From Chiloscyllium plagiosum (taxonomy: Eukaryota): 64,000 bases of DNA. Shown here one piece after another: positions 1,713 to 50,625 of the stretch (positions are counted from its first letter, which is position 1; each line of letters opens with the position of its first letter). Below the pieces are notes generated by a model that ran no database searches, was not told where the DNA came from, and saw only the letters and a program-made list of their open reading frames with translations. A program made the position numbers and the translations under genes. Location of the stretch: the NCBI RefSeq assembly GCF_004010195.1, contig NC_057753.1:14452191-14516190 (forward strand), read 5' to 3'.

Positions 1713-2033
1713 AGCTCCTGGCCAAAGAAACTACCACAGATTCTTCTCTGGCACTGGCGGCTGTGAAATGCACCTCATTGAGTATGAACCGCAGCACCAG
1801 TACCTTGCTCAGCTTCGTGAAGTGGTACGGTGGTTGGGCAAATGAGAATCGCAGCTTCTGATCATTGCCTTGGGCAGCGTAGTCAGAACAGGGAGAATTC
1901 AGACGACTCTTCATAGGGAAGATAAATGAAGAACTTTGTCCATCAGCGACATTATAATTAAGGATCTCACCATCTACCTCTGTGCAGTGATCTTCACCAT
2001 CATGCAACCCAATAAGCAAACAATGCAGAAACC
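1713..2033 (+). pseudogene. Decayed TRAV-like V segment, opposite orientation (relic R1), with degenerate 23-RSS
   Basis: Reads ELLAKETTTDSSLALAAVKCTSLSMNRSTSTLLSFVKWY../..LLIIALGSVVRTGRIQTTLHREDK*RTLSISDIIIKDLTIYLCAV; followed by caccatc (1995-2001) + 23 nt + gcagaaacc (2025-2033). Confidence 0.7.
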
Positions 2034-2931
2034 CCCAGGAGACAGGAACCTTACCGACAACCTCGCCATCTCAAGCACAGCAACCCTGCAGAGGAGCAGC
2101 AAGAACAGAAAGAACATGCATTTCGCTGAGCTCCCATGTTCAGTTTAGAAATATTGCATCAATGTTAATTCGTGAGAACGTATACTGTTTCTATTTTCAA
2201 ATCATTTTGAAAAATGATATTATATATCAGCTTAGTAGAGGAACCGGTTGGATTTCACCCAAAGGGACGCACACTACCATTGCACATCAGTAGACCCTCT
2301 GAATGTGGAGTGCAACTCCCCTTCTTCCATTGCATTCGGGACAATGTTAATCAATGTCAATCGCACAGCCATTGGCATGCCCTATTGACAGAAGCAGAAC
2401 ATCAAAATGAACAGCAGCTCTCTGCTTTATGATGCAAAGCAGACCAGAGGAGGAAGTGACTTTGTTATACTTCCATCAACACACTTAACGAAAAACAGAC
2501 TCCCGAGATCTCTTGTATACAACATTCGTTAAAACAAGAGAATGATAATGGAGTGAGTAATGAGAGTAATGAGAGAAATTGCAGCTGAAATAAGTCTCAG
2601 AAAATTGAGATGAAAGACCCGTCGTGTAGTTGGCTTCTTGTTTTTCCATTATGATAGCTCCAATCAAATTCAGGCTGAGTTGACTGAGGAGCATCCAAAA
2701 CAAGGAGAGAATAAACGGGAAACTCACACTAAAGGTAAAGAGATGCCTATAGACAGTGGTGAAGATGACACTGAAGATCCACAGAGAAACGAAGAACTGA
2801 GATCAATAAATGGGAGATGGTTGGCAGTGCTACAGCAAAAACATCAGGAGAGGGATTTTGATTCACGTTCTTGGATTGTTATTGGCAATTAATTGTTGCA
2901 TACTTCACTTAAACAGACCCACATAACAACA

Positions 2932-2947
2932 CAGAGAGAGACGGAGT

Positions 2948-2981
<34 letters not shown>
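2932..2981. repeat. (GA)n microsatellite
   Basis: Interrupted AG run seen directly. Confidence 0.9.
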
Positions 2982-3473
2982 CGATTGCAATAGTGTGTTA
3001 TCAATAGATAGAGCTCTAGGTGATCACATCAATACGCTATTCTGGCAATACAATCAAATCAGCAGCATCATCCTTTCTAATACCTTGTCTTCAGTAATCT
3101 GTGGTCGTGTCGCTAGATGTTTCGCCTAACTCGCATGTATGCACGGTTCGGGAGAGGGTGTTCGTTTGAGTGCTGAGTCTGTGAAACCTGGAAACTGAGA
3201 TCTATCTCCCAGCTAACTGTCTACAAATCACATGACAGGAAATTGTTAACCTTGGGGACTTGCAGTTGAGTGTTCAGACATGACTCTCTTCTGTGTCTGT
3301 GTGAATATTTGGAGCCTTCAGCTGCTTTTCTCAGCAGCTCCGGGAAGCCATTGTGTAACAGCCCGATCGAGGTTATTTTGGTTTCCTCTTGGTGTGAGTT
3401 TGAACAGTATGTTGCGACAGCCCAGGGTCAGAACAACTCTAACCAACAGAGAGCCAATTTATGGTTCAAGGAA

Positions 3474-3512
3474 GTATTTTGTACAGTGGTGAGACTGTTT
3501 CTCATCATTGTA
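3474..3512 (-). other. 23-RSS of V1, defective heptamer
   Basis: Minus strand: TACAATG - 23 bp - ACAAAATAC; the essential first C of the heptamer is lost. Confidence 0.85.
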
Positions 3513-3970
3513 TCATCCAATAAAGCACAGTAATACATGGCAGTGTCAGAGAGCTGCAGCCCGCTTCTAGTCAAACTGGTGAATTTCTTTGAAGTCTGAA
3601 GTTCTACAGAGAAGCGATCTTCTGCAAAACTTGTTTTACTTTCAGAACCATCACTATACTTCCACAGAATAAACTTAGGCTGGCTGTCTCGGCGTTGCTG
3701 GTACCAATAAAATGTATAGCAGCTCCCTGTAGTTTCATAGGTACAGCTTAGAGTCACCTCATCTCCTTTTGTCCGAACAACTGAGGGGAGTGGCTGAGTG
3801 ACAGAATCTCCATGACTCAGATCCGAAGGGTAAAACAGAAATCAATGATAAACTGTCAGGCTGGGGTCAGTTTAAACCATGACTTGATGAAGAAATCGGC
3901 AACACATTTCCTTCACTGTTACCTGTTAACATTGCTGCCCACAGAACACCAAAATGCTGAGTGGCCACAT
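3513..3970 (-). pseudogene. TRAV/DV: TCR alpha/delta V segment V1 (leader 3923-3970, V exon 3513-3822), pseudogene
   Basis: Open V domain (TLSCTY..WYQQ..RFSVEL..DTAMYYCAL), but the leader is 48 nt with an in-frame TAA, the splice acceptor is CGG instead of CAG and the heptamer is TACAATG; paralog of intact V7. Confidence 0.85.
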
Positions 3971-4657
3971 TGTCGCTGTCCTCTGCGTAATACGATGGTC
4001 GGATATTTGAAGACAGTTATTCTCTAAACCCCATGGTAAAATGCTTTCATGTTACTACTGATTCCCACCTCACTGCCTTGTGTGGGTGGTGCTGCTCTAT
4101 TGGCAGAAGGAGGACATTAGACTCTCAGTGAAATGACACATCCCAAGCTGTGTACAGTCACTGGAACACCGAGAGATTTGAAAGATTGACTTCCATCCAT
4201 AATACATCACTATACCAGTTACACTCAATACTCTTCTTGTTTCACTGATTGAATGCCAAAATCTCACCATTTTTACTTCTTATTCAGTTTGCAGGAGCGG
4301 GAGAGGGACGTCATTACCTGATGCTACGCAGAGGATGTCCAACATCCACATAAGTCTTGTGGAGCTACAAATTGTCCAATGAAATATAATCCTGCAAATC
4401 CCACCCTCTATATTAGTTGAACCAATCTGAGACTTCTCCATCATTGTTTCCATTATGACTTTTGCGAAATGTGTATTTATTCTGCCCCTCAATTGCTGTT
4501 CTCTGTTCTCTGTCCTGAGCCTCAACATTGCCAATATGTGCTTCTGTTACTCCTTCTTAGCATACTTCACTGAGCTCAATCTCACCATTCTTCCTCGTTC
4601 AGTGGGTGTTTTCTAACAATTGTGTCACTCACTTTTGCAGTGACAATTTCAGTTCGT

Positions 4658-4755
4658 CTGTGTGTGTGTGTGTGTGTGTCTGTCTGTCTGTCTGTCGGTC
4701 CGTTTGTCACTCTGTCTGGTCTGTGTTTCCGTCTGTCTGTCCGTCTGTCTGTCTG
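4658..4755. repeat. (GT)n/(CTGT)n simple repeat
   Basis: Seen directly. Confidence 0.85.
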
Positions 4756-5814
4756 AGGTTGCTTGCTTGTCTCTCTGGGTGATGGGAGATTTTTATCGGT
4801 GCTTTGAAAGGGTGTGTTGCACCTTAATTTGGCTTAACGAAGTTTCTACAACCACACAGCGAAAATCGCCAGGGAATCACTCAGAGGGCAGCACCAGCAG
4901 AGAGCAGCATTCAATCTTATCCCACTGTCAACACACGCAAACAATCGCACGTGCCCACATACAGAGGGACAGGAAAAGCGTAAGGATAACAACTAGTTTA
5001 GATTTAAGAGAGGTCGCTGTAGGGATCACAGAGATAGTCACTATAGAGGAAACAGTCGTGCTCAGTGCATTGATTACAGAACCTTCAAATCAAGTATTCT
5101 AAGGATTTCTTCTATTTCTGATCAAACATCTAACTCTTGAAATCTCCCAAGAACGCGTGCCCAGGCTATCTAGTCTTTCAATGTGTATCTCAGAATTGAA
5201 CATATTTAGCTCACAGACTCTGTAGTAAATCATTCCACAGATTATTTTCCCTCTAAAAGAATAAATGCTTCCTCATCTCGAGCTCGAATGTTTGACCACA
5301 TTCTCTGAGATTACGCCATCTGCTCCTACATCTTCCATCAAGGTGAAAAGACTTTGCCACTTCTGTCCTATTACGTTTTCATCCCACACCTCTCAATCAC
5401 GTGGCACTTGAAGTTGTTCCTCAAGAATCAGAGTAGGATGCCTCCATCCCGTTTCTATGCAGCTCACTTATGCACTGACGAGATTTCTGATGTTGATAAA
5501 CACAAAGGATGTTTGCACACATTCGTTTCTCTTCAGACCTCCAGCCCTATAACAATACAAAGTATTTTTCTGTTAAGTCAGTTGGGTTTAAAATTCCACA
5601 CTTCAGAGTGCAGGAGTTGAGATGAAGGTCTGGTCTGCTAATTGCCATGTATAAATCAAAAAAGTAAGCTGGAGTTCCAGCATTTGGAAACAGTCGTAGT
5701 ATAACACGGCATTGAGGAGAATCTAAGTTTGAGTCTGTTTTAAGGATCCACCACACTACGTTTTGAGATCTGTCCATTGTGTAAAAACTATCTCTAATCC
5801 AAAACTTCACTCTG

Positions 5815-6143
5815 GTGGGCTCCACGGTGACACAGTGGTTAGCACTGCTGCCTCACAGCGCCAGAGACCCGGGTTCAATTCCCGCCTCAGGCGACTGACT
5901 GTGTGGAGTTTGTGCGTTCTCCCCGTGTCTGCGTGGGTTTCCTCCGGGTGCTCCGGTTTCCTCCCACAATCCAAAAGATGTGCTGGTCAGGTGAATTGGC
6001 CATTCTAAATTGCCCCTAGTGTTAGGGAAGGGGTAAATGTAGGGGTGTGGGTGGGTTGCGCTTCGGCGGGGCGGTGTGGACCTGTTGGGCCAAAGGGCCT
6101 GTTTCCACACTGTATGTAATCTAATCATGTAATCTAATCTAAT
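5815..6143 (+). mobile_element. tRNA-derived SINE (shark HE1/V-SINE type)
   Basis: A/B-box head (cagtggttagcactgctgcctcacagc..gggttcaattccc), core tgtgtggagtttg..ctccccgtgtctgcgtgggtttcctccggg, (taatc)n tail; empty site in the paralog at ~46750. Confidence 0.9.
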
Positions 6144-7730
6144 GAATAAACAGAACCTCTTAATGAACTGCGAGTTGTTCCTCTGGGAAACTAGCATGAG
6201 AGATTTGAAATGGGATGGTCAGAATACCAGAGGGCTAACAAAGGATGATGAAGTAACAAAGGAATCATTAGAATATCGCTAGTGAATTTATGAATGTGTG
6301 AATGAGGAGTACTAGAGGCTGCGAGTTGATGATGCTGTCAGTTAGAATGGTGTTGTGTGCTGCTGCCCCCCTTCTGGTTATAACTCTGCATAGTTTGAAC
6401 CTCCTTTTGTGCATTCATGGACATGGACCTGGAAGGGTCAACATTACATTGCGTTGAACAGAAGGGCGTGAAACACGGAAAGATCGTTTTGATCAATTCA
6501 TTCATTATCATGCCTTCAGTCAAGTTATGCCACAAAGCAACAGCCAGCTGCTTCTGTGCGAACATTACATCCTTGAGACAACTGTCCAGATGAACGTTTC
6601 TGATATTTTGAACATCTTCCCCATCAAACATTGAGACAGACCGAACAATATACAGCACAGCACATCGAAACAAACTCGTAAAGAAGTCAAACAAAATGCA
6701 CAACAAAACTTCCATGCAGACGTATTGATACATACGTTTTAGCACTTGCAGCTACGGTGGAAACCTACGGTGCACCAGTTCGTCGGCGACTGATTAATGT
6801 GTGTAGTTGGAAGTGTCACAACATAATGTCCTGCTCTGTTCTGTTCTGTACTATCAAAAGGAGAACTGCTGTATCTTTCGGTTTTGGACTAGCATCAATA
6901 GGACTGAAATCTGGAGTTGTGATTAACATTGATTATTCTCAAGCTGAATGTAATCACCCCAAGTGTTTCGAGTTGCATCCCTGAACTTCGCGGGACCTAT
7001 TCAAGTTTGGATTTTGAGATAATATTATTGTGATTGAGTCTTTAAAGCTACTCTTTATTTTTGAGTGAACAGTTTTAAGTAAAAATAAATCAGCAGCACC
7101 AACTAAACCAGCGACTATTTCTGCATGTAAAGACAAGGGCAGCAGGAGCATCCTGCAATATCTCCTCCAAATCTCTCTAATGACACTATAATTAGAAGTG
7201 TACCGCCCGTCCTTCAGCGTCTGGATCAATATTCTACCTTCGCCGCCCTAGCTATTTCCTGTGTCCATTTCCCCACTAAGTGATACAGCCATTTGAAAAG
7301 GCAGTTCATCACTAATTACTACAGATGCATTCATGTTGGACACGAAACGTTATGCCAGCCAGCGTCGACAAGATGGTCCAAGGGAAAAAATGATGCAAAG
7401 CTAATAGTGTTATTTGGGAATCAAGTTGACACATTTTCTCATCGTACTTGCTGAGAATTTGACGTTCTAACAAGTTGGTTGGCTAAAATGAACGATGAAA
7501 ATGTCATTTTTTTTTACTGGCAAATATAACAATCACAGGGGTGAGAGGAGAATAATCTTATTTAAGAAATACTTTGAGAAGAAACGGCATGTCAATATGT
7601 TTCAGCGTTTGTCTATTGGGATGAATAACCAGTTTCCCGATTGGAAAATACAATGTGGTTGCAGGGAGTTGGATGCTTGCACATATATTTCCTCCCATCA
7701 TTTCTCCATGGGGTTTGTTCTATGTTGCAG

Positions 7731-8296
7731 AGCTCCTGGCCAAAGAGCGGATTACGTACTCTCACCTCATCATAGTGGCAGCACGGTGGCTCAATGGTTA
7801 GCACTGCTGCCACAGAGAACCAGGGTCCCATGTTCGAATCCAGCCTCAGGTGACCATCTCTGTTGAGTTTGCGTATTCTCCCCGTCTGGGTTTCCGTCCA
7901 AAGATGTGGAGGTCAGGTAATTTGGCTATGCTAAATTGCACGTAGAGTTAGGTGCATTAGTCAGAGGAAAGTGTGTTTAGTTGGGTTACTCTTCAGAGGG
8001 TTGGTATGGACTTGTTGGTCTGAAGGGCCTGTTCCCACACTGTTGTGAATCTAATTACTGGAAGCCTCCCAGTAACTGCAGTACTGACACCTTGCTCAGA
8101 TTTGTGCAATGGGTCCAATGGTGTCACAGGCAGGATGTACTTTGGCAGCGTGTTCAGAGCAGGGAGGTCATTCTAACCTGAAATGAAAATACAGCACTTT
8201 GACCATCAGAGACATTGGGAAAGAGAGTGCTGGAGAGTACCCCAGCGCCGTGACCATCCCTACTATACAACCCAATCAGCAGCCAGTACAGACAGG
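7731..8296 (+). pseudogene. Decayed TRAV-like V segment (relic R2), interrupted by a SINE
   Basis: Acceptor gttgcag|agctcctggcc (ELLAKERITYS), then after the SINE NCSTDTLLRFVQW..STLTIRDIGKESAGEYPSAV; ccctact + 23 nt + acagacagg (8288-8296). Confidence 0.65.
7775..8056 (+). mobile_element. HE1/V-SINE-type SINE, diverged
   Basis: ggcagcacggtggctcaatggttagcactgctgcc head, similar to the 5815 copy. Confidence 0.8.
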
Positions 8297-10232
8297 AGCT
8301 ATGCTGACAGTGCCCAATCTCAACCACACAAGCGAATTTTTTGAAGCGCCACTTGCAATGTTGAACGTCAGACGATGCTGTGGTTTTAAGATGTTGTTTT
8401 CGCCTGGTTTCTTTTCAGAGATAGATTTAATAAGAGGTGCAGAGAAGCCTAGCGAAGATTATTTGAGTAAACAGCTGAGAAAGTCCTGGGGGTGAGGGCG
8501 GAGTTTATCAGCATGAATGTTAGTGACAAGCTCCAAAGGATCAGGATTATTGGGTTTTAGCTTTTCAGCATCATCAGAAGTCGCTGGGGGCTCAACAGAG
8601 TTGAAAGCTGCAGAAACGCCTCGTGGCTGCTACTCTTTCTTTCAATTTTTGCTTGCTTGTTTTGCCCTCCTAGACTGGAGACTGAGACTTTTTCTCTGAA
8701 CTTGCTTTGTCTCCAAAGGGTGTGTTTATGGGTATGTTATTATTTTAAAACTGCATAAGCAATTGTCACTACATCTATAATTCAGATGAGTTATCCAGTG
8801 GAGTAAGTTGTTCTGAATTCTTCTTTTTTATATTTTTGTTTAACTGTAATGTTTCAACAAATTGTCTTTTGCTTAATGTCGAGTAGTTGGACCAATTGAA
8901 TTGCATTTGAAACACAACACGTTGCATCTGTATTTAACATTAGAAAAGAAGATAGGGTCTGGGCTAACTTCTTAAAATACTTTGAGGGGATCTGGTCTGA
9001 TCCACACCAAATATGACATGAATCTTAATCAGTGAGAAGCTAGAATGTATCAATTTCCTTCACAACTTGTTCAGAGATTTCATGCCTATAACTAGAGCAG
9101 GTGAGGCTAGAAATGGGATCTGCTCGACACAACGTGACAATATCACTGCGCATCTGTAGCCCCTACGAATCTCAAGATCTGGGTTGATTATATTCAGGAT
9201 AATGAGGATAATCAATGCTAATTATGTACTATTGACACGAGTGCAAACCGAAATACAAAGCGGCTCTCCTCTTGATTGTGCATAGCAGGCCAGAGCAGGA
9301 AACATAGCTGTCATTCTTCCAGTCACACACTAACTGAAATGCAAAGACACGTGAATTCTTACACACCACATGAGTTAAAACTAGAGAACAATATTGTGGT
9401 CAGCAACGACACCAATCACAGTGAAAATGCAGGTGCAAAGATAAAAAGTTAAACTGAGATTAAATTAACCAGCATGTAGTTGCTTTTCATTCCACGTGAT
9501 GGGATCTCCAATCGCTTTGAGGTTGGGTTCACCGACGATAATCCAAAAGAAGGAGGGACTGAAGGGGAAACTCAGTTTACCAAGACAGAGAGACAACTAC
9601 AGATAGCGATAAAGACAGTGCTAAGGATCAACAGAGATACCAGGAGAGGAGATCAATCATTGCCTGACGGTTGGCAGTGAAATGGAAGAAATGTCAGGCG
9701 AGGGAATTTGTTATTAAAAGTACAATGTGGTACTGATAATTTCACTGTTACATTGAAACTGCATATATTCTGGCTTGCGTTCTCACACTGATACACACAG
9801 TTGGAGATGAAAACACACACACCGGTGAGTATGAGGTGTTTTGGAAACGAGAGCTTTTTCCCAGCTCACCTGTCTACAAATTACATAGAGTCATGGAGTC
9901 ATAGTGATGTACAGCATGGAAACAGACCCTTCGGTCCAACCTATCCATGCCGACCAGACATCCCAACCCAATCTAGTCCCACCTGCCAGCACCCGGCCCA
10001 CATTCCTCCAAAGGGTGAGTATTTGAACGAGTGCATTCAATCATGAATCGGTTCTGTGTCTGTGGGATGCTCGGAATCTGCATTTGATTTTCTCAGAAGA
10101 TCCGGGAAATAATTGCATGACAGTTTGTTCTGAGTTCAATTTGAATTCCTCTCAGCATGAGTTTGAGTTCCGAATAGCACATTGCAATAGCCCGAACGCC
10201 AATAGAAAGAGAGGGCATCTATTTTTCAAGGA

Positions 10233-10271
10233 CATTTTGGTACAGAGGGGAGACAATTTCCCATCACTGTG
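10233..10271 (-). other. 23-RSS of V2
   Basis: CACAGTG - 23 bp - ACCAAAATG (degenerate nonamer). Confidence 0.75.
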
Positions 10272-10713
10272 CAGACTCAGAAAGCGCAGTAAACACGACA
10301 GTCTCAGACAGCTGTAGCCCGCTGGTAGTCAAACTGGTGAATTTCTTCGAGGTCTGATTTTCGACAGAGAAACGACTTTGTACAAAATTAGTTTGATCAT
10401 CATCACCATCGGGAGCTTTCCACAGAATAAACTCGGACTGTGTGTCTGGGTGCTGTCAGCACCAGAATATTTTCTCGTAGCTCAAAGTAGTATCTTGCAT
10501 ACTAGAGTAAGTGCCTCTCCGACTGTCTGAGGGGAGTGATTGTGTGACAGAATCTCAATGACTCTGGGCTGATAGGGTAAATGGACATCAATTGTAAAGT
10601 GTCAGGCTGGGATCAGTTTAATGTGTGATTTAATGAAGAAATGTAAAATGCATGTCCTCACGTGTACATGTTAGAATTGCTCCCCACACAATCCAGATCC
10701 TGAGTAGCCACAT
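10272..10713 (-). pseudogene. TRAV/DV: TCR alpha/delta V segment V2 (leader 10668-10713, V exon 10272-10568), pseudogene
   Basis: Clear homology to the other V exons; FR1 deletion, TGA shortly after the conserved Trp (TTC TGG TGC TGA), 1-nt deletion in the YYC codons, weak donor. Confidence 0.85.
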
Positions 10714-12413
10714 TGTCGAGGTCCTCTGCGTGAAAGGTCAGTTGTATAGTTGAGCAACCCTTTTCAATATCCCGCCCTCAGTGAACTGCTGACGTAGCTG
10801 TGGAAGCGTCTTACGTCCTTGCCTTCTGTGGACGATGATGCAATGTGTCTGGAATGAAGAAAGCAGTTTCATAGTGAACTGGCACATCCCAATCTCAGTT
10901 ACACTCACTGTACATAAAATGGAGCATTGAGAATTGTGATACATTGACTTCCATTTGTGATAAGCAATTGCCCTCTCAAGACTCTGCTCTTTTTCTGTTC
11001 AAAGTCCTCAAACGAACACATTTCTTGTTCTTAAGCAGTTCATACTTTCCTTCAAATTGTCCACCTGGTCCCCAAGATTTCCCCAATGCTTGTGGCCCCA
11101 TAAGCTGTCTCCTCCCAAATTGCAATCACACCTTCCACATCACTGGACTCCATCTCAACCTTATCCAGTAGCATCTCTGATATAACTTTTAACAGATTCT
11201 CCCTATTGCTGTCTCTCTGTCGACAGGCACGAGGTGATCACTCTTTCCCTCTGTTAGTTCCTCCTGGCATTCTTCACTGAGCTCAGTTGCACCTTCCTTC
11301 TTCGCCTCTGTTGAAATCTTTCTCTTACTGAACGCAGACGGTTGACAGAACGGGATTCACTGTGCATCTGAATACTGTTACAGGAGCTGTCGTCGGCTCC
11401 AGGACCTTCAGTGTGTTGTGTGCCTGTCTGTCTCGGTGTCTGTACTTATCTGTGTGTTTCGCTGGAGTGGGGAAGCGTGTCCTACTTCCAATGGGATGTA
11501 TGTACCAGGATGTTCACTGAATTCGGAAGAGGCAAGGCCGCCTTGTGTTTCACTTCAATTACGTTTACAGTGGTGAAATGTCATCCTCTGCTAATGAACT
11601 GAAGCTAATACAATTGAGCATCGTGATAATCACCAAGGAAACAGTCAAAGGATGAGCACAAGCAGACATCAATTTTACACGTGACAACAGTCTCAACACG
11701 AGTGTGCACACATGCAGAGAGAGAGAGAGAGCAAGAGAGACAGAGAGAGAGAGATGGGTGTTATGTTCTGTTCTAAACAGGCAGAACTGTGTGTGATCAC
11801 GTCGATGGGTGAAAAGGTTGATGCGACAGTTCCTCAATATAATCAAATTCGCAAGGTTTGCAATTCCAAACGACTCCCCCAGAACTCTGCTCAGAAAGAA
11901 AAATGGAAATATTTGGAAGCTTACCAGAAACAATCACTGTTCCTGAAACCTAACTCCTATTTCTCTCCAGAGATGCTGTCAGTCCTGCAATTTTCCCAAA
12001 AAAAAAATTCCTTTTTTTGTTCTGATTTCCAGGATCCACAGTTCTTACCGTTTTATTTTGACTCAGTAAACTGCATGCTTTTGCCTCACTGCCTTGTGTG
12101 GGCGTTGAGGATGTAAAACTCCGAGAAGGACCGTTGTCTCCCAGTTCATGAACTAAAAATCATAGGACAGCAAATTGGTTGATGGTGGGCATTAGAATGG
12201 ATGAGGTTACACATTGCTCTGTTCTGTGGAGGTGCGCAAGTTCAGAGTGCACAGTTTACTTTCTCAAGCAGCACAAGAAACAATTCGGTTACAGTTTGAT
12301 GTAAGGTTAGTTTGGTTTCCTCTCGGTATTTGTTCAGGTTCCTGAAAGCACGTAGTAACTTTCCAACACTCTATGAAAACCTCAATAGATGGAACTATCT
12401 GTGGTCCAAAGGC

Positions 12414-12452
12414 AGTTTTTGTACAGTGGAGAGACTGTTTATCATCACTGTG
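12414..12452 (-). other. 23-RSS of V3
   Basis: CACAGTG - 23 bp - ACAAAAACT, near consensus. Confidence 0.92.
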
Positions 12453-12890
12453 TCACTCAGAGCGCAGTAATACACGGCAGAGTCAGTCAGTTCTAGCCCA
12501 GTAATAGTCAAACTGGTGAACTTATTCGAGGTCTGAAGTTCTCCTGAGAAGCGCTTTTTCGCAAAATCTGCTGTATCCTCAGAGCCACCAGTACCTTTCC
12601 CCAGAATATACTCGGGCTGTCTGTCCAGGCGCTGGCGGTACCAGTACAACCAATAGACGCTCCATGTAGTATCATAGGTACAGCGCAGAGTCACTGCCTC
12701 TCCTTCTGTGTGAAAAGCTGAGGACAGTGACTGAGTGACAGAATTTCCGTTGCTCGGATCTGAAAGGGAAAACAGATATCAATTGAAAAGTGTCAGGCTA
12801 GGCTCGTTGAAAACCGATTTTTAAAAGAAACATATATTCGAATTGCTCCACATTTGCACCCCACACAACGCAGATGATGAGTAGGCACAT
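12453..12890 (-). pseudogene. TRAV/DV: TCR alpha/delta V segment V3: intact V exon (12453-12759) and RSS, leader splice donor deleted
   Basis: Open V: TLRCTYDTTWSVYWLYWYRQ..DSAVYYCALSD; leader MCLLIICVVWGA lacks the ~13 nt containing AG|GT found in paralog V8, and read-through ends at TAG in the intron. Confidence 0.8.
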
Positions 12891-13244
12891 TGTCGCTGTC
12901 TTCTGTGCCCGAGTGCTGTCGGTTATTTGAAGACATTCAATCTAATATGCCACCCACAATGAACAGATCACGTGTCTGTGGAAATTCTCACCTCAATGGT
13001 CTGTGTCTGTGTGGGGTGGGCAGGGGGGGGGTGTGTGGAGGGGGTGTATGCTATCGTGTTGGTGGAGAAGAGCAGGTTCTCTGTGAAATATACATCCGGA
13101 TCCGGTCTGCAGTCAGTGCATTAAATAAGGAGTACACAGAATTCCAGTAGATTGACTTGCATTCATGACAAACAACTCCCCTGATTCACTGTACACTTTA
13201 CTGTAGTGAAACCATTTTTTTTTGTTTTTTTTTTCTCCTAGTTG

Positions 13245-15600: not shown

Positions 15601-15699
15601 TAAATGTGTGTTGAGTTATCAGACTCTCCTCGTGAGTAAGAGAGATCTTTGGTTTTGTGGATAGCCAAACTCCGATGTTTTGTGTATTTACTATTCAGC

Positions 15700-16335
15700 A
15701 ACTTCAACTACGCTATCTATTGCTCTCGATGTGGTCTCCTCCATATTGAGGAGACAGAACAGCAACTCTCAGAACATCTCAGGTGTCGTCTGTGGGCCAC
15801 ATTTATCCTCCAACGCCACAGCTATGTGGCCGATTACTTCAACTCCATTCGATCTCCACCCAAGGACATACAAGCCTTGGGCCTCCTCCACGGAAAAATC
15901 AAATCTACCCCACGAGTGGAGGATGAACGCCTTATCCTCCAACTTAGGACCCTTCAAACATATGGCATCCCCTTCTATTTCATCAGTTTCCAAATGTCCC
16001 CTCCCCTATCTCATCAAAACTCCAACCCTCCAACTCAGCACCACCCTCGTTACCTGTGCCAGCTGTACATCCTTCTTCCCACCTATCCCCTCCATCGACG
16101 CCACTGACTTAGCCCCTCCATCGACGCCACTGACTTAGCACAATCAACCACCACCTGCATCCACGTATCACGTTCCCTGCCACCTTCCCTTCAACTACAC
16201 TAACACTCGTAGAACTCTCAGTCCCCTTCAAACTCCCACAAACGTGACGAATGATTTATGCCCAAAACATCGACTTTCCTGCCCCTATGATGCGACCTGA
16301 CCTGCTGTGCTTTTCCAGCGCCACGCTTTCTGAAT
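15700..16335 (+). mobile_element. Penelope-like element 3' fragment (GIY-YIG)
   Basis: IYCSRCGLLHIEETEQQLSEHLR..VADYFN..EDERLILQLRTLQ, followed by the PLE tail. Confidence 0.8.
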
Positions 16336-16569
16336 CTGTCAATGTATACATAAAAAGAGATTTTGTTTTGGTGAACAGAGTAGAGTATTGAAATCAGAAA
16401 AGAAACACTGTTGTTCTCTCTTTTAGTCCCGAATTGACGTCAATTCTTGTTCTTGACAATTTCCGGGCTCCCTCCAAGTTCTCAACATTACCCCTGAGAT
16501 TTCCAATCCATACGTACAACTTGTGAGCCCAAAATCTGTCCCTGCTCAAAGTTCAATCACACCTTCCAC

Positions 16570-23945: not shown

Positions 23946-23957
23946 AATGCACAATCG

Positions 23958-31500: not shown

Positions 31501-31527
31501 AGCATGGAATTAAAGAATTAAAGCATA

Positions 31528-32532: not shown

Positions 32533-32571
32533 AGTTTTTGGACAGGGGCGAGACTGGTTATCAATACTGTG
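32533..32571 (-). other. 23-RSS of V6
   Basis: CACAGTA - 23 bp - CCAAAAACT. Confidence 0.75.
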
Positions 32572-33723: not shown

Positions 33724-33882
33724 NNNNNNNNNNNNNNNNNNNNNNNNNNNNNNNNNNNNNNNNNNNNNNNNNNNNNNNNNNNNNNNNNNNNNNNNNNNNN
33801 NNNNNNNNNNNNNNNNNNNNNNNNNNNNNNNNNNNNNNNNNNNNNNNNNNNNNNNNNNNNNNNNNNNNNNNNNNNNNNNNNN
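33724..33882. other. Assembly gap (N run)
   Basis: 159 N. Confidence 1.
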
Positions 33883-40998: not shown

Positions 40999-42771
40999 TG
41001 GCGGCTCAGAGTTACTGCAGCTGTGACCAGACATACGGCAGCAACTGACAGCAGCATCCAATCTGACAGAACCGTCATAACGCATACACAGACAAATAAG
41101 ATCAGTGTGGTTATTAGAGAGCTGGCCCATGTGAAAATTACAGAATGGTTAATGTGGGGATCACAAAGATGATCAGACTGGGAAAAAAACAGGCATGGTG
41201 AAGGTGTGGATTACAGATTCTCCTAACCAAGTCCTCTCTGGACTTTATATGCTTCATTCAACCATGTGTATATCTTGCAACCTCCAGAAGATACAAGGCC
41301 AGGCTGCATAGTCTTCCATATCTATCTCAGACTTGTGCATATTTTGCACAAAATCTCTGTCGTAAACATTTCCACAGATTCTTCTCTATTTGAGAGAACA
41401 AATGTCTCCTCATTTTGATCTTAAACGTGTGCCTCCTTATTCTGAGCTTATGCCACTGCTCCTGGATTCTTCCACGGTACAACAAGCTTTCTGTGTTGAT
41501 TCTGTCAATTTTTCATTTCACACCACTACAGCATACGACAGTTGAATGTGAGCCTGCTGACACAAATCGGGAAACTACCACACTGTCACAAGATCTCTCC
41601 ATGCTGCTGGCATATATGCAGATGAATTATGCAGACATTGATAAGCAGAAAGTATGTTTAATCCTATTGATCCATTTGCAGAACTCCAGATCTGCATTAA
41701 CACAAACGAATTATGTGCTATGTTAGTGGGATTCGGACAGGAATGCTTTCACACTTTAACATGCTGGAGTGAAAATGGATTGCCGTTATTGGACACGAAC
41801 AAATCAAGAAACTGAGCAAGTGTTTCAGCATTAGGAAGACAGCTGACGTACAACCTGCCATGTAATGGGATCTAACTTTGATTCTGTTTTAAGGATTCGC
41901 TCCATCACATTGTGAGATCTGTCTGTTGTGCACAATGCAGCCTTGATCCAAAAATTAACCTTGAACAAACGCATCCCCTAATCAACCTGTGGATTGTTAC
42001 TCCGAGAAACTGACATGAGAGATGTGGAAAGATCGGTCCGGAGTGACAGGCGTGTATAACAAGAGAAACAGTGGACAAAACAAATGTTAAAATGTCTCCA
42101 GTGAATTTATGAATGTCAGCTGTACATAGGAGTTGAGATCAACAAAAACTGCACATTGTCGCCATGTGGGCGCGTTGTTGATGCTGTCAGTTTGAATTGT
42201 ACTGCAAGTTGCTGATCTGTAGTGTATGTTACTCTCTGATTGAACCATTGATTGGTTTGACGACTCTCTTGTACAGTAACGGGCATCCATCAACAGAGGG
42301 TGGCATTATATCTAGATGAAGGGAAGGTCATGAAGCGAGGGAAAAGATTTAGTTTTTTTTTAAATCTAGTCATTCACAATCACTCCTCTAATCAATTTAT
42401 CTCAAAAATGCGCCAGTCTGCAGCTTATGTGCTGACATTAGATCCGTGATGAAACGCTCCAGATTAACGTTTCTAAATTTTGAGCATGTTTCCCATCAGG
42501 CAATAAGACAGACAGAACAATACACAGCACAACCGTTGAAACACTCACATAAAGGTATCAAATCAAACATACACAACGAAACGTTCTTATACACAAATAC
42601 ATATTTGCACTAACACGTGAAAACTCAGATAAATGAATACCAGGGATTGGTGGTTGGAATCAACGTCCAGTTTCCCTACTGGGAAGTCCAATGTGCTTCT
42701 AGGGAGCTGGAAGCTTGCACTCTTATCTCCTCTCATCAGTTCGTCAACCGGGATTTGAATTCGTGTTCGCG

Positions 42772-43092
42772 AGCTCCTGTCCAAAGAAACGATCACGCAT
42801 TCTTCTCTGGTACTGCCAGCTGTGAAGTGCACGTCGTTGAGAATGAAACGCAGCACCTCTACCTTGCTCAGCTTCATGAAGTGGGGCGGTAGCGTGGCAA
42901 ACGACGATCACACCTTCTGATTGTTGCCTTGGGCAGCCTAGTCAGAACAGGGAGGAATCTTACCACTCTTCACAGGGAAGAGAAATGCAACACTTCATCC
43001 ATCAGCGACATCAGGAGTAAGGCTCTCAATATTTATCTCTGCCCAGTGATCTTCACCACCATGCAACCCAATAAGCAAACAATACAGAAACA
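42772..43092 (+). pseudogene. Decayed TRAV-like V segment (relic R5, paralog of R1)
   Basis: ELLSKETITHSSLVLPAVK..STSTLLSFMKW../..LLIVALGSLVRTGRNLTTLHREEKCNTSSISDIRSKALNIYLCPV; caccacc + 23 nt + acagaaaca. Confidence 0.7.
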
Positions 43093-44364
43093 CCTAGGAG
43101 ATAGGAATCTTACCGACAGCCTCGCCATCTCAAGCACAACAACCCTGCAGAAGAGCAGCAAGAACAGAATGAACATGCATTTTGCGGAGCTCCCACGTCC
43201 AATTCAGAAATGTTGCATCAGTATTAATTGGTGAGAACTTATATTGTTTCTATTTCCAAATCATTCTGAAAGATGATATTATTAATCTCTAGATCAGCTA
43301 AGTAGAGAAACCGGGAAGATTTTACCCAAAGGGATGCACACTACCATTGCATATCAGTACCCCGTCTGAATGTTAAGTGTGACTCCCCTTCTTCCATTTC
43401 ATTTGGGACAATGAGGAATAACCAATGTTAATCGCACATCCATCGACATGTCCTATTGACAAGAATACAACATCAAATTGAACAGCAGCGCTCTGCTTTA
43501 TGATGCAAAGCAGACCAGAGGAGGAAGTGATTTTGTTAAACTTCCATCACACACTTAATGAAAAGCAAAATCACGGGACCTCTCGTATACCATATTAGTT
43601 AAAACGAGAGAAAGATATAGGAATGAGTAATGAGAGTAATCTCCGTAAAATTGCAGCTGAAAAGAAGTCTCAAAAAATTGAGATGAAAGACCCCGTGGTG
43701 TAACTGGTTTCTTTTTTTACGTATGATACCGCCAATCAAACTGAGGCTAGAGAGGGATTTTGATTCACGTTCTGGGATTGTTATTGATTAATAAATTGTT
43801 GCATATTTCACTTAAACAGGCCCACATAACAACACAGAGAGAGAGAGAGAAAGAGAGATGGTTGCAATGGTGTGTACTCAATAGATACAGTTCAATGTGA
43901 TCACATCGATGATGGGAAAACAGATACACTATTCTGGCAATACAATCAAATCAGCATCACCAGCCTTTCGAATAACTTGTCTTCAATAATCTGTGGTCGT
44001 GTCGCTAGATGTTTCTCCTTACTCGCATGTAAGCGCAGTTAGGGGGAGGGTGTTTGTGTGAGTGCTGAGTCTGTGAAACTTGGAAACTGAGATCTTTCTC
44101 CCAGCGGACCGTCTACAAACCACATGACAGGAAATTGTTAACCATGGGGCTTGCAGTTGAGTGTTCAGACATGACTCTCTTCCGTATACTGTGTGAGTGT
44201 TTGGAGTCTTCAGCTTATTTTCTCAGAAGCTCCAGGAAGCCATTGTGTAACAGCCCGATCGAGGTTATTTTGGTTTCCTCTTGGTGCAAGTTTAAACAGT
44301 ACGTTACAACAGCCCAGGATCAGACCAACTCCAACCAACAGAGAGCCAATTTATGGTTCAAGGA

Positions 44365-44403
44365 AGTTTTTGTACAGGGGCAAGACTGTTTCTCATCATT
44401 GTG
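44365..44403 (-). other. 23-RSS of V7
   Basis: CACAATG - 23 bp - ACAAAAACT. Confidence 0.9.
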
Positions 44404-44859
44404 TCATCCAATAAAGCACAGTAATACATGGCAGTGTCAGAGAGCTGCAGCCCGCTTATAGTCAAACTGGTGAATTTCTTTGAGGTCTGAAGTTCTGCAG
44501 AGAAACGATCTTCCGCGAAACTTGCTTTACTTTCAGAACCATCGCTATACTTCCACAGAATAAATTCCGGCTGGGTGTCTCGGCGTTGCTGGTACCAATA
44601 AAATGTATAGTAACTCACTGTAGTTTCATAGGTACAGCTTAGAGTCACCTCATCTCCTTTTGTCCGAACAACCGAGGGGAGTGACTGAGTGACGGAATCT
44701 CCATGACTCAGATCTGAAAGGTAAAACAGAAATCAATTGCAAACTATCAGGTTGGTGTCAATTTAAACCATGAGTTGATAAAGAAATGTGCAATGCATTT
44801 CCTTCGCTGTTACCTGTTAATATTGCTACCAATAGAAACAAAATGCTGAGTGGCCTCAT
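44404..44859 (-). CDS. TRAV/DV: TCR alpha/delta V segment V7, apparently functional (leader 44814-44859, V exon 44404-44713)
   Basis: Leader MRPLSILFLLVAILT, GTAACA donor, TTCAG acceptor, open V DSVTQ..TLSCTY..WYQQ..YYCALLD. Confidence 0.9.
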
Positions 44860-45584
44860 TGTCGCTGTCCTCTGCGTAATATGGTAGTCGGGTATTTGAA
44901 GACATCCATTATATAAACCCCGCCCATGGGAAGAAATAGTCCTGTTATTGCTGATTCCCACCTCACTGCCTTGTGTGGGCGGTGATGCTCTGTGGGCGGA
45001 ACGAAGACAGCAGACTCTCAGAAAAATGATACACCCAAGCTGCGCACAGTCAATGAAACACTGAGAATTCTGAAAGATTGACTTCCATCTATAATATAAT
45101 CACTGTACCAGTTACACACAATGCTCATATTCTTTCACTGATTTAATTCTAAATTCATGCCAGTTTATTCTTATTCAGTTAGCGGGAGCGGGAGAGGGAA
45201 GTCATTACCTGATGTTACACCCAGAATTTCCAACATTCACGTAAGTCCTGTGGAACCACAAACTGTTCACTCAAATATAATCCTTCTGATCCCACCTTCT
45301 ACATGAATGGAACCAATCTCAGTCTTATCCAGCGTCATCTCCATTCTGACTTTTGCCAAATTTGCCTTTATTCTGCTCTTCAGTTGTTATTCTCTGTTCT
45401 CTGTCCTCAGCCTCAACATGGCCAATCTGTGCTTCTGTTACTCCCTCTCAGCATTCTCCACTGAGCTCAGTCTAACCATTCTTATTCCTTCTGTGGGTGC
45501 TTTCTAACTAACTGAACATGCTGACCTCACAGCACGTTACCCGATATGTGTCTGAATAATTTTGCAGTAACTATTTCAGTTCGG

Positions 45585-45587
<3 letters not shown>

Positions 45588-45646
<59 letters not shown>
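45588..45646. repeat. (GT)n microsatellite
   Basis: Perfect dinucleotide run. Confidence 0.95.
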
Positions 45647-47907
45647 TGTGCTCAATTGTCTCTCTGGGTGATGGGAGATTTATCTTCATGCTTTGACGGG
45701 GTCATAACCATTTTGTGCTGCACTTCAACTTGTCTTGAAGTAATAATGTGCCACCCTGTACTGGCGGCGTGACGTTTCTACAACCAAAAACCAAAATCGC
45801 CAGGAAATCACTCAGAGGGCAGCACCAGCAGACAGCAGCATTCAATCTGATCGCACCATCAGCACACACAAACAATCGCACGGTACAATACACAGAGAGA
45901 GGAAAAGTGACGTTATAACAGTTAGCCAGTGTGAAGATTTAAGAGAAATCACTTTGGGGATTACAGAGATAGTTACTATAGAGAAAACAGGCATGTTCAG
46001 GGCATGAATTACAGAACTTCAAATCAAGTCTTGTAAGGATCTCTTACTATTTCTGATCAAACACATCTGACTCTTGGAATCTCCCGAGAGCACAAGCCAA
46101 TGCTATCTAGTCTTTCAACGTTTATCTCAGCCTTGAGCATATTTGGCTCCCAGGTTCTGTGGCAAATCATTCAACAGATTATTTTCCCTCTGAGAAAAGA
46201 AATGCCTCCTCACCTCGAGCTTCGATGTGTGATTACTTCCTCTCACATTACATCATCTGCTCCTACATCCGCCATCAGAGCGAAACAACTTTGCCACGTC
46301 TGCTCTGTTACGTTGTTATTCCATACCTCTCAAACATGTGGGACTGGAAGTTGTTCCTCAAGAATCAGAGTAGGATGCCACCATCCCGCTTATATGCAAC
46401 TCGCTTTTGCACTGACGAAATTTCCGATGTTGATAAATACAAAGGATGTTTGCACACATTCATTCCCCTTCAGACCTTCAGCCGTGTAACAATGCAATGT
46501 ATTTTTCTGTTAAATGAGTGGGGTTGTAATTCCACATTTTAGAGTGCAGGAGTGGAGATGAATGTCTGGTCTGCTAATCGTCATGAACAAATTAGGAAAT
46601 TAAGCAGGACTTCCAGCATTTGGAAACACATGAAATACAACACGCTCTTGAAGAGAATCTAAGTTTGAGTTCGTTTTAAGAATCAGACACACTACATTTT
46701 GAAGTCTATCCATTGTGTACAAACTGTCTCGAATCCAGAAATTCACTCTGAATAAATAGAATTTCTTAATAAACTGGGAATTGTCTTGCTGGGAAACTGG
46801 CATGAGAGATTTAGAAAGGGCTGTTCAGAATGACAGGCGGGTGAACATAGGGTAGTGAAGGAAAAAATGAATCATTAGAATATCGCCAGTGAATTTATGA
46901 ATGTCGGCTAGACATGCGAAGGCTGTGAGTTGATGATGCTGTCAGTTAGAATAGTGCTGTGTGTTGCTGTTCCTCCTTCTGATTAAATTTCTGCATAGTT
47001 TGAACTTTCTTTTGTGCACTCTTGGGCATGCACCTGGAAGGGTCAACGTTGTTTGCGTTGAACAGAAGGGGGCGAAACACAGAATGATCTTTTTGATCAA
47101 TTCATTCATTATCATGCCTGCAGTCAACATATGCCACAAAGCAACAGCCAGTTGCTTCTGTGCGAACATTAGATCCGTGAGAGAACTGTCCAGGTGAACG
47201 TTTCTGATATTTTGAACATTTTCCCATCAAACATTAAGGCAGACCGAATAATATATAGTACAGCACATCGAAACACACTCGTAAAGAACTCAAACAAATA
47301 TGCACAACAAAACTTTCATGCAGACATATGATGCACACACTTTAGCACTTGCAGCTAAATGCATAGATGGAAACCGATGATGCACCAGTTCGTCGGCTAC
47401 TGATTACTGTGTGTAGTTGGAAATATCACAACTACACACAGCATTTCCTGCTGTCTCCTGATGTGTACCATAAGAAGGGGAATTGGTGTTTCTTTTGGAT
47501 TTGGACATCCATCAATAGGACATTAATCTGGAGTTGTGATTAGCATTGATTATACTCAAGCTGAATGCAATCACCCCAAGTGTTTCGAATCACGTCCCTT
47601 ATCTTCGTGGGACCTACACAAATCTTGATTTTGCGATAATATTATTGTGACTGAGTTTTGAAAGCTACTGTTAATTATTGAGAAAAGTGGTAAGCAAAAT
47701 GAAATCAGCAGCACCGACCAAACGAGCCACTATTTCCACCTGTAAGAATAAGAGCGGAAAAAAACATCTTGCAATATCTCCTCCAAGTCACTCAGAAGAA
47801 TCCAGAATTGGAAATGCATCACCCTTTCTTCAGTGTCTCTGGATCAATATTCTACCTTCGCCACCTATCTCCCCGCCAAATGATACAGCCACGTGAAAGG
47901 ACAGTTT

Positions 47908-48217
47908 TAGATTAGATTACCTCTGTGTGGAAACAGGCCCTTCAGCCGAACATGTCCAGACTGACCCTCCGAAGAGCAACCCACCCATTCCCCTACATTT
48001 ACCCCTGAAAAATCCACCTACCACTATGGGCAGTTTAGCATGGCCAATTCACCTGACCTGCATGTCTTTGGACTTTGAGAGGAAACTGGAGCACCCAGAG
48101 AAAACCGACGCAGGCACGGGGAAAATGTGCAAACTCCACACAGACAGTTGCCCGAGCCAGGAATTGAAACCGGGTCCCTGGCGCTGTGAGGCAGCAGTGC
48201 TAACCAATGAGCCACCG
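47908..48217 (-). mobile_element. HE1/V-SINE-type SINE, reverse orientation
   Basis: Reverse complement of the SINE head, core and tail; abuts a plus-strand SINE 3' half (48222-48380). Confidence 0.85.
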
Positions 48218-48389
48218 TTTCGTCCCACAGACCAAAGATGTGCAGGTCAGATGATTTGGCCGTGCTAAACTGCGCATAGTGTTAGGTGCATCATTCAGAC
48301 GGGAATGGGTTACTCTTCGGAGGGTTGGTGTGGACTTGTTGGGCTAAACGGCCTGTTTCCACACAGTAGGGAATCTAATCATTCTGCCT

Positions 48390-48618
48390 CTGGAAGCCTC
48401 GAACTAACTGCAGTACCGATACCTTGCTCAGATTTGTGCAATGGTTCGGTTGGTGTCACAGACAGGATATATTTTGGCAGCTTGTTCAGAGCAGGGAGGA
48501 TTCGGGTCATTCTTACCTGAAATGAAAATACAGCACTTTGACCATCAGAGACATTGGGAGAGAATGTGCTGCAGAGTACCCCTTCTATACAACCTAATCA
48601 GCCGCAAGTGCAGAAACC
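48390..48618 (+). pseudogene. Decayed TRAV-like V segment (relic R6, paralog of R2), 5' part lost
   Basis: NCSTDTLLRFVQWF..FGSLFRAGRIRVILT*..STLTIRDIGREC; nonamer-like gcagaaacc at 48610-48618. Confidence 0.6.
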
Positions 48619-49455
48619 CCGGTGGAGACAGTAGCAACAAGCGAATGCAAATGAATTTTTTGGAGTTCCCACGTGCAATGTTGAACTTCAGACGTTGCTG
48701 TGGCTTTGAGAAGTTGTTTTGTCCTGATTTCTTTTCAGAGAAACATTTAATAAGAGGTGCAGAGATGTCCAGCGAAGATTACTTGAGTAAATATCCGGGG
48801 AAGTCCTGGGTGGCTGGTTAACAGCATGAATGGTTATGACAAGCTCAAGAGGATCAGAAGTATTGGATTTTAGCGTTTCCGCAGTATCGGAAGTCGCTGG
48901 GGGTCACACCACAGTTGAAAGCGGCAGAAACGCCTCCTGGCTGCTACTCTCTCTAAATGTTCCCTTTTATCCCCTCCTGGATTGGAGAACTGCATGTGAG
49001 ACTTTTCTCTCTGAATTTGCTTTGTCTCCACAGGGTGCGTTTATGGTATGTTATTATATTGAAACTATATGAGTAATTGTCAATGCATCGATCATTCAGA
49101 TGAATTATCCAGTTGAGGTAAGTTATTCCAAACGCCTCTTTCTTGAATGCATTTTAATTGTAGCGTTTGAACAAATTGTCTTTTGCTTAATGTCGAGTAG
49201 TTGAATCAGTTGAATTGCAATCTGAAACACAACACATTACATCTGTCTTTAATACTGGAAAAAAATAGAGTCTGGACTAGCTGACTAAAATACTTTGAGA
49301 GGATCTGGTCTGATCTATACCAATTATTACATAAACCTGAATCTGTGAGAAGATAGAGTATATCAATTTTCTACACAACTTGTTCAGAGGTGTTCTACCT
49401 ACAACTGGACCAGGTGAGGCTAGAACTGGGATCTACTTGACACAAAGTGACAATA

Positions 49456-49652
49456 GTCGACAGTGTGGTGCTGAAAACGTACAGCAGGTCAGGCAGCATC
49501 CGAGGAGCGGGAGAATCGACGTTTCGGGCATAAGCCCTTCATCCTAAAACGTCGATTCTCCTGCTCCTCGGATGCTGCCTGACCTGCTGTTCTCTTCCAT
49601 CAGCACACTCTCGTCTCTGATCTCCAGCATCTGCAGTCCTCACTTGCTCCAA
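49456..49652. mobile_element. Palindromic Penelope-terminal-repeat mini-insertion
   Basis: Inverted PLE tails; 12-bp TSD aaagtgacaata (49444-49455, 49653-49664); empty paralogous site at ~9131-9150. Confidence 0.88.
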
Positions 49653-50133
49653 AAAGTGACAATATCACTGCACATCTGTAGCTCCTACGAATCTCAAGTG
49701 GGCAACTGGTTTCGGTGGATTATATACAGGATAATGTTCTGATTTCCAGCATCCATAGTTCTGTCCGTTTTTTTTTTTAACTCAGTTAACTGCTGTGGTG
49801 TCCCTGCATGCGTGTGTGGGCGTTGAGGATGTAAAGCTCCGTGCTGTCTCTCAGTTCATGAACTACAAATCACAGGACAGCAAATTGTTTGGTGTTGGGG
49901 AGTACAACGGGGGGGGGGGGGGGTCACACATCAGTCTGTTCTGTGTCTGTGCGCAAGCTCAGGGTTCACAGTTTGTTTTTCTCAAGCAGCTCAGGGAAAC
50001 ATTTCGGTGACAGTTTGTCGCAAGGTTAGTTTGGTTTTCTATCGGTGTTTGTTTAGACTCCTGAAAGCACGTAGTAACTTTCCAACAAACTGTGAAAACC
50101 CCAATAGATGGAACTATCTGTGGTCTAAAAGGC

Positions 50134-50172
50134 AGTTTTTGTACAGTGGAGAGTCTGTTTATCATCACTGTG
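50134..50172 (-). other. 23-RSS of V8
   Basis: CACAGTG - 23 bp - ACAAAAACT. Confidence 0.92.
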
Positions 50173-50625
50173 TCACTCAGAGCGCAGTAATACACGGCAG
50201 AGTCAGTCAGTTCTAGCCCAGTGATAGTCAAACTGGTGAATTTATTCGAGGTCTGAAGTTCTCCTGAGAAGCGACTTTTCGCGAAGTCTGCTTTATGATC
50301 AAAGCCACCATTAGATTTCAACAGTATATACTCAGGCTGTGTACCCAGCTGCTGTCGGTACCAGTATAACCAATAGTTGCTCCATGTAGTATCATAGGTA
50401 CAGCTTAGAGTCACCACCTCTCCTTCTGCCCAAACAGCTGAGGACAGTGACTGAGTGACAGAATTTCCATGGCTCGGATCTGAAAGGGAAAGCAGATATC
50501 AATTGTAAGGTGTTAGGCTCGGCTGGTTTTAAATTGCGTTTTAAATAAGAAATATATCTTCGATTTCCTCCACATTTACCTGCTAGAATGGTGCTCCACA
50601 CAACCCAAATGCTGAATAGCCGCAT
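50173..50625 (-). CDS. TRAV/DV: TCR alpha/delta V segment V8, apparently functional (leader 50580-50625, V exon 50173-50479)
   Basis: Leader MRLFSIWVVWSTILA, GTAAAT donor, open V TLSCTYDTTWSNYWLYWYRQ..DSAVYYCALSD, consensus RSS. Confidence 0.92.

Follow-up and report, generated by a model that had tools for sequence, protein, structure and literature searches.

Duplication of homology units has multiplied the variable (V) genes of the human TRB and IGH loci, and the duplicated units of these loci, like those of bovine TRB and ruminant TRG, hold co-oriented genes. The V genes of the shark new antigen receptor-T-cell receptor (NAR-TCR) cassette are also co-oriented and end in one chain. In the accessible parts of the literature, block duplication of V genes with pseudogene passengers is described for bovine TRB (PMC2685407) and ruminant TRG (PMC2270265), and the NAR-TCR cassette is described as a NAR V that sits on top of a TCR delta V supporting it (PMC12227049). 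We analyzed a 64,000-nt window of Chiloscyllium plagiosum DNA (NC_057753.1, 14,452,191-14,516,190, forward strand; all positions below are window coordinates), which probably belongs to the TCR alpha/delta V array of this shark. In this window, minus-strand V genes alternate with six plus-strand V relics. We consider it probable that an opposed unit of two V families recurs in tandem here, and that its likely alpha-type member was already a dead passenger when the unit was amplified.

As far as the accessible parts of the mammalian papers go, the window is similar to the mammalian blocks in its multi-gene tandem duplication, in copies being born and dying, and in the deletions and insertions of retroelements that came later. 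In contrast to those blocks, its unit opposes two V families, and the orientation switches every 1-4 kb. The unit shares with the NAR-TCR cassette the property of being a duplicated two-V unit in a shark TCR alpha/delta locus; that cassette itself was ruled out here by the opposite strands, by the relic being nearer to TCR alpha than to VNAR, and by the partners having their own leaders. Teleost TRA/TRD loci carry V genes in both orientations, and 13 of the 14 functional genes of an inverted block are expressed in Atlantic salmon (accessible part of PMC8559430); therefore, orientation alone does not kill a V gene. However, the salmon inversion comprises one block of 29 genes and not a gene-by-gene alternation, according to the same text.

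Mixed V orientation in sharks is already in published tables. When the strands in Table S1 of PMC12227049 were counted by hand, with NARTCR and Ig-TCR rows excluded, the TCR alpha/delta V models of the epaulette shark comprised 15 plus and 9 minus (24 rows) and those of the great white shark 13 plus and 8 minus (21 rows). These elasmobranch arrays are like the window in having V genes on both strands, and one great white pair is convergent, 828 bp apart; the table contains annotated gene models only, and relics as decayed as those described below would likely be missing from it. The accessible main text of that paper does not describe a repeated alternating unit, and the word "orientation" is absent from it. 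The nurse shark has V genes named alpha/delta (accessible part of PMC5931798). No account of a repeated opposed two-family V unit was found in the literature searched, the subscription papers on the nurse shark locus lying outside that scope. Two such papers, Deiss 2019 and Ott 2021, are said to deal with this locus and may map V orientation. The layout is unusual and the process ordinary, being a variant of known V-block duplication.

A V profile search detected exactly ten minus-strand V genes in the window (V1 to V10), all of which align to V7. A relic DNA profile matched exactly six plus-strand sites (R1 to R6), with nothing further below an expectation value (E) of 0.17; because it was built from the same six relics, it tests for extra copies and not for those six. 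The relics, their recombination signal sequences (RSSs), and the V genes facing them are as follows.

1574-2033, plus strand: R1, with leader (1574-1622), intron (1623-1712, GG donor), and exon (1713-1994).
1995-2001, plus strand: R1 heptamer CACCATC, followed by a 23-nt spacer and the nonamer at 2025-2033.
2034-3473: tail-to-tail spacer of unit 1, homologous to the spacers of units 2-5.
3474-3970, minus strand: V1, partner of R1; pseudogene with a 2-nt leader insertion, the acceptor AG lost, and heptamer TACAATG.
7589-8296, plus strand: R2, with a GA donor at 7644, a repeat inserted in the exon (~7767-8057), deletions, and heptamer CCCTACT at 8258-8264.
10233-10713, minus strand: V2, partner of R2; pseudogene with the donor lost, stops, and frameshifts.
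18850-19293, plus strand: R3, with a GG donor at 18904 and the exon at 18978-19254.
19255-19261, plus strand: R3 heptamer CATCGAG, followed by a 23-nt spacer and the nonamer at 19285-19293.
20681-21171, minus strand: V4, partner of R3; intact, with a consensus 23-RSS.
31534-31644, plus strand: R4, the 3' end of a relic only, cut upstream by sequence like a long interspersed nuclear element (LINE).
31612-31618, plus strand: R4 heptamer CAAATTG, with an RSS spacer of 17 nt.
32533-33024, minus strand: V6, partner of R4; pseudogene with frameshifts and TGA as second Cys codon.
42633-43092, plus strand: R5, sister of R1, with a GG donor at 42682, the acceptor lost, and the exon at 42772-43053.
43054-43060, plus strand: R5 heptamer CACCACC, followed by a 23-nt spacer and the nonamer at 43084-43092.
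44365-44859, minus strand: V7, partner of R5 and sister of V1; intact, with heptamer CACAATG.
48385-48618, plus strand: R6, sister of R2, with no leader or 5' exon, the second Cys and the heptamer deleted, and the nonamer at 48610-48618.
50134-50625, minus strand: V8, sister of V3; intact, with a V-alpha signature at its end.

Every relic lies 0.96-2.0 kb from a minus-strand V gene, in agreement with an earlier note on this DNA, which had placed such a gene 0.9-2 kb downstream of each; within the window, no relic was found away from a minus-strand V gene. The heptamer-to-heptamer distances were ~1.52 kb (R1-V1), 2.01 kb (R2-V2), 1.46 kb (R3-V4), 0.96 kb (R4-V6), 1.35 kb (R5-V7), and 1.59 kb (R6-V8). 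Six random points obeyed the distance rule in 130 of 100,000 trials, a figure that is to be read with the relics not being mutually independent. Five of the pairs are original, and R6-V8 is a secondary pair of neighbors. The spacers of R1-R5 are homologous, as had been proposed: they are collinear, 62-67% alike between lineages and 85% alike for R1/R5, and the spacer blocks named in the note are present at all five sites (near 2340, 9200, 19610, 31950, and 43410). In a second sample of the same species, R3-spacer-V4 was tiled by four adjacent contigs (at least ~98% alike), and a second species covered much of it at ~95%; no single contig from either bridged the relic and the V gene. Both samples carry contigs that are 83-87% alike to unit 3 and match no other unit of the window, which points to a further copy outside the window sequence.

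Contigs of both species contain a V4-like copy without 350 V-exon bases (joint at 20686-21037), in which the break lies inside the RSS spacer and not at the heptamer. An inverted copy of the best-conserved spacer block is located ~600-800 bp upstream of R2 (6774-6982, minus strand), at a place matching that of a copy before R6 (47399-47572, minus strand).

The DNA between the pairs recurs as well. The repeat unit and its later rearrangements comprise the following features.

4030-7560: head-to-head interval, made up of V 5' flank, blocks a0, A, B, and x, and relic 5' flank; it recurs whole or truncated elsewhere.
12414-12890, minus strand: V3, with an open V exon and a good 23-RSS but with 13 nt deleted across the leader donor; it has no own relic.
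22103-29297: relic-free sub-array with three inverted B-A copies, a bare V 5' flank (~23970-24600), and the pseudogene V5.
27252-27741: V5, pseudogene inside the relic-free sub-array.
42629-54121, plus strand: younger block duplicate, ~77-83% alike to 1570-16568.
49700-49760: deletion junction, at which ~2.8 kb including the V2 equivalent was removed and V8 was placed behind R6.
55575-56068, minus strand: V9, intact; block A joins the V9 3' flank directly at ~55370; no relic.
62176-62665, minus strand: V10, intact; a piece of block a0 lies just before the V10 3' flank; no relic.

A whole head-to-head interval lies at V1-R2 and at V7-R6, and part of one precedes R1, R3, and R5; in front of V3, V9, and V10 it is truncated and joined to the V gene's own 3' flank. 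Between old lineages its blocks are 58-68% alike, similar to the tail-to-tail spacer, and units 1 and 3 align at 60.5% without interruption over 3.5 kb, from the relic flank through relic, spacer, and V to the V flank. Because the head-to-head interval is equally homologous between copies, what is repeated is the full period of ~6.5 kb, with no special place for the convergent pair, which is one possible division of a tandem repeat. Only a single breakpoint, where the young block ends on the right in the V3/V8 5' flank, shows a cut inside the head-to-head interval of the kind that a convergent unit implies. The idea that the array grew by duplication of a two-V cassette therefore holds insofar as relic, spacer, and partner were duplicated together, but the unit is the whole period, and the stretch from V4 to V5 grew by a relic-free unit. 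In the sub-array at 22103-29297, blocks A and B are inverted, with no relic following, after V4, after the bare V 5' flank, and after V5. The orphans V3, V9, and V10 likely lost their relics by deletion, because truncated a0/A pieces of the relic interval sit directly before them, a point that adds weight to the joint duplication of relic and V gene.

The younger duplication copied a ~15-kb block and gave R5/R1, V7/V1, R6/R2, and V8/V3. At the R6-V8 junction the equivalent of 9204 is joined to the equivalent of 12018, so that the loss of the V2 equivalent postulated earlier could be mapped. Like this duplication and deletion, the alternating layout and the collinear intervals are direct observations. 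Within the duplicated block, V1/V7 and their 3' flank (3169-3770 versus 44070-44660) are 92-93% alike and the rest 80-88%, which suggests gene conversion. In the head-to-head interval, part of block B (6143-6750) repeats the beginning of block a0 in inverted orientation, with seven matches (E 1e-13 to 6e-3) at the following positions.

4870-4920, 11543-11706, 41026-41091, 45710-45870, 54454-54662, 58644-58777, and 63421-63605: inverted matches of block B.

These old inverted repeats could have let blocks A-B flip, as at 22103-29297.

The relics belong to a different V family from their partners, a point on which the earlier note was silent. Combined, they have a leader, an intron of 74-90 nt, and a majority exon that is open but for one stop and shows the Cys, Trp, Cys spacing of a V domain. 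A profile of five relic 3' halves, searched against PDB (177,635 sequences), gave 175 matches to E 10, the first four being TCR alpha chains (E 0.0023-0.0079); TCR alpha V reached E 0.0023 versus 0.06 for VNAR. The best 60 of the 175 were nearly all Ig-type V domains, with a few single-chain variable fragment and nanobody entries at lower ranks; no conventional antibody heavy chain was present by name among these 60, and TAILV or an IgH-like V was ruled out on this basis. A recent inversion of a neighboring V gene was rejected as the source of the relics, since the relic profile does not detect the V genes, nor the V profile the relics. A retained-intron reading was also dropped: although the intron lengths of R1, R2, and R5 are divisible by three and the introns are nearly open, no clear codon pattern is visible in them.

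The 3' ends of the genes also distinguish the two families. TG at positions 8-9 from the Cys codon is a V-alpha end signature conserved in cartilaginous fish, and a V-alpha RSS at position 15 from the Cys codon is stated for zebrafish (accessible part of PMC10322711). TG at 8-9 and a heptamer at 15 were found directly in R1, R2, R3, and R5; R4 shows both if the count starts at its heptamer and runs backward, and the region is lost in R6. TG is absent from all five true partners, four of which have the RSS at 18. From the similarity of relics versus partners and from these end signatures, the pair is likely an alpha-type relic facing a delta-type gene. The full V-alpha signature occurs in only V3 and V8 among the ten V genes; both belong to the minus-strand family despite their V-alpha ends and may be V genes that alpha and delta chains use in common. 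V4 is 71% and 66% identical to two variable-joining-constant (V-J-C) proteins, whose constant part we take to be shark TCR delta, and 66% identical to a Heterodontus (horn shark) model; these three were its only matches in the databases searched, which hold few shark V proteins, and no relative of V4 was found among metagenome contigs. In Pfam, V4 (E 2e-15) and V7 (E 2e-17), the two of the ten V genes scanned, matched V-set.

All six relics are pseudogenes, and every one carries frameshifts, stops, or a truncation; R1, for example, has lost the first Cys and has one frameshift and stops. They represent four old lineages (R1/5, R2/6, R3, and R4), and none of the six passed the RSS scan. The heptamers had been called degenerate throughout, and indeed all five survivors are off consensus and that of R6 is deleted; the nonamer-like motif is well preserved in all six. 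The description of the pairs as facing 23-RSSs is correct for R1, R2, R3, and R5, which keep the 23-nt spacer, but not for R4, with 17 nt, or for R6, with its heptamer deleted.

Divergence was compared in six pairs among R1, R2, R3, and R5; R4 and R6 were omitted as too short or redundant. Codon positions 1+2 of the relics diverged like the spacer in all six pairs (p 0.13-0.91), and the partner V exons were more conserved than the spacer in all six (p below 0.03). The splice donor lacks GT, with no T at +2, in each of the four relics that have a leader (GG, GA, GG, and GG). These three results support the view that the relics behave as neutral passengers. They fit the early death suggested in the note; the heptamers that it pointed to show by themselves neither early death nor selection. 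It had also proposed looking for inactivating mutations shared by all relics: no single heptamer lesion is common to all copies, and among the lesions the donor defect is the most plausible one to predate the amplification. R1 and R5 have in common a frameshift and the loss of the first Cys, and therefore their ancestor was already broken; their number of nonsynonymous substitutions per site (dN), 0.17, is at the level of flanking DNA.

Several results weigh against a dead alpha-type passenger in a tandem unit. The shared donor defect relies on the alignment of decayed sequence, and the base in R2 differs. Five of the ten V genes have no relic of their own, relic deletion being inferred and not seen. 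The alpha assignment is modest: single relic translations matched nothing in Pfam or PDB, relic 5' halves reached only E 0.49 in PDB, and the relic profile search among longer proteins found no living shark relative. R3 gave two matches in a HMMER search of 1.84 billion representatives, and the one inspected was a repetitive unrelated protein; shark V sequences were absent from the parts searched of the supplements of PMC10322711 and PMC5931798. The trees were not decisive. The relic, V, and V-flank trees have the same best topology, whereas the spacer prefers the runner-up (ultrafast bootstrap 93); in none of the four partitions did the approximately unbiased test reject either topology (on the spacer, that of the relics had p 0.10), so that the congruence of relic and partner trees, suggested earlier as a check, was neither shown nor rejected, and breakpoints could not be set from the trees. 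Finally, third codon positions differ in excess between R1 and R5 (26/93 versus 27/189, p 0.005, one of 15 comparisons), with a ratio of nonsynonymous to synonymous substitution rates (dN/dS) of 0.49 that is unexplained, and a weaker excess was obtained for R1 and R3 (p 0.015). Such an excess is as expected if the reading frame was selected for a while after copying.

This excess, together with the dN/dS value, speaks for amplification while both genes worked, which would have produced an alternating array of opposed alpha- and delta-type genes in which each alpha-type copy was lost independently at a later time. In favor of this, the relic lineages differ from one another in most of their frameshifts, deletions, and heptamer changes, and the convergent great white pair (PMC12227049, Table S1) is an annotated TCR alpha/delta V pair. 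However, in none of the six pairs are positions 1+2 better conserved than the spacer, 13 of the 15 relic comparisons have no third-position excess, and all four donors lack GT. The great white pair is the only close pair in the 21 TCR V rows and is likened to the present ones by layout, not by family. We regard this course of events as rather unlikely.

The RSS of the relics may instead have been selected against, because a facing 23-RSS only 1-2 kb away would allow rare 23/23 joins that delete the signal of the partner, or would draw rearrangement into a dead gene. The relic heptamers are somewhat more eroded than their surroundings, which again does not favor pure passengers: those of the four lineages have 11 mismatches to the majority over 7 columns, a number reached by only 15 of 458 overlapping 7-column windows, while the nonamer-like motif is kept. 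This is a hint of selection on heptamers and no more, and the selection against the plus-strand partner that the note had offered as an option finds no further backing. It is a single post hoc test at ~3%, and the alignments of R2 and R4 are uncertain near the heptamer. Moreover, CAC is retained in R1 and R5, no inspected deletion junction lies at a heptamer border, and the pseudogenes V2 and V6 keep good heptamers. Selection of this kind appears quite improbable. A combination of the two ideas is doubtful too, if a shade less so: the array would once have consisted of opposed alpha/delta pairs with chain type tied to strand (deletional versus inversional rearrangement), the alpha genes would have been silenced, preferentially at the heptamer, because 23-RSSs facing each other at 1-2 kb invite 23/23 joins that destroy the partner, and living pairs would persist in other sharks. 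If this were true, the 828-bp great white pair would be an example of a surviving living pair. That the relics are decayed repeat fragments within the tandem unit and not V genes, as the lack of any Ig family match of single translations and the best score of E 0.43 against a profile of local V proteins might suggest, is hardly credible and largely refuted already by the leader, the short intron, the Cys/Trp/Cys spacing, the near-open majority frame, the nonamer 23 nt behind the heptamer position, the V-alpha end signature, and the nearly all Ig-type V domains among the best 60 of 175 PDB profile matches.

The preferred reading, a tandem two-family unit with an alpha-type passenger dead by the time of amplification, can be outlined as follows. 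A ~6.5-kb unit of one minus-strand V and one opposed V of a different, likely alpha-type family would have spread by unequal crossing-over in a burst from which four or more lineages remain, almost equally distant from one another (non-coding DNA 62-67% alike). The relic would have been disabled at or near the start, possibly through loss of the GT splice donor; some minus-strand genes may have been kept by selection, and in several copies a later deletion would have removed the relic. Those minus-strand genes that are intact would rearrange to distant diversity (D) or joining (J) segments. The 12/23 rule does not allow one 23-RSS to be joined to another, so the facing of the two signals is probably a by-product without present function. 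The relics themselves are most likely inactive now, since their signals and splice sites are broken and the same rule applies.

Among the minus-strand genes, V4, V7, V8, V9, and V10 are apparently intact. The pseudogenes are V1, V2, V5, and V6, and thus include three true partners out of five (V1, V2, and V6). Leader and intron are present in all ten, some of them defective, and seven of the ten passed a strict 23-RSS scan. Over 18250-21900, two single-cell RNA runs labelled as the same species, with ~2 and ~6 in 100 of each sampled, gave 5 reads (all <90% alike and on a repeat) and 0 reads. Alignment of sequencing runs covered 3.65 kb of the window and four of 24 runs. A 23-RSS-like match at 23771 was set aside because it lies in no V homology, and a CTCF-like motif was rejected (4 matches versus 3.5 expected; 39 versus 40.8). 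A piece of ~110 bp in a V 3' flank (~3070-3185) resembles the V promoter region in direct orientation (versus 50668-50780 and 62723-62831) and is perhaps the remnant of a lost co-oriented V. Two opposed LINE-like fragments, 69% alike, lie between V9 and V10 (57077-57695 versus 59565-60190). An assembly gap of 159 N (33724-33882) is located just past the V6 5' flank, and the link between V6 and the interval before R5 crosses it.

The relics have no evident function, and their relevance is mainly for specialists in the evolution of antigen receptor loci. The unit accounts for some of the mixed V orientation seen at the TCR alpha/delta loci of sharks, in that a single opposed pair, once present, can spread through an array by plain tandem duplication. 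It also reveals a V family, likely alpha-type, that automatic annotation would likely overlook and that this lineage may have lost altogether. Living opposed pairs, should other sharks possess them, would offer a natural test of RAG at short-range facing 23-RSSs and of whether the strand decides alpha or delta use.

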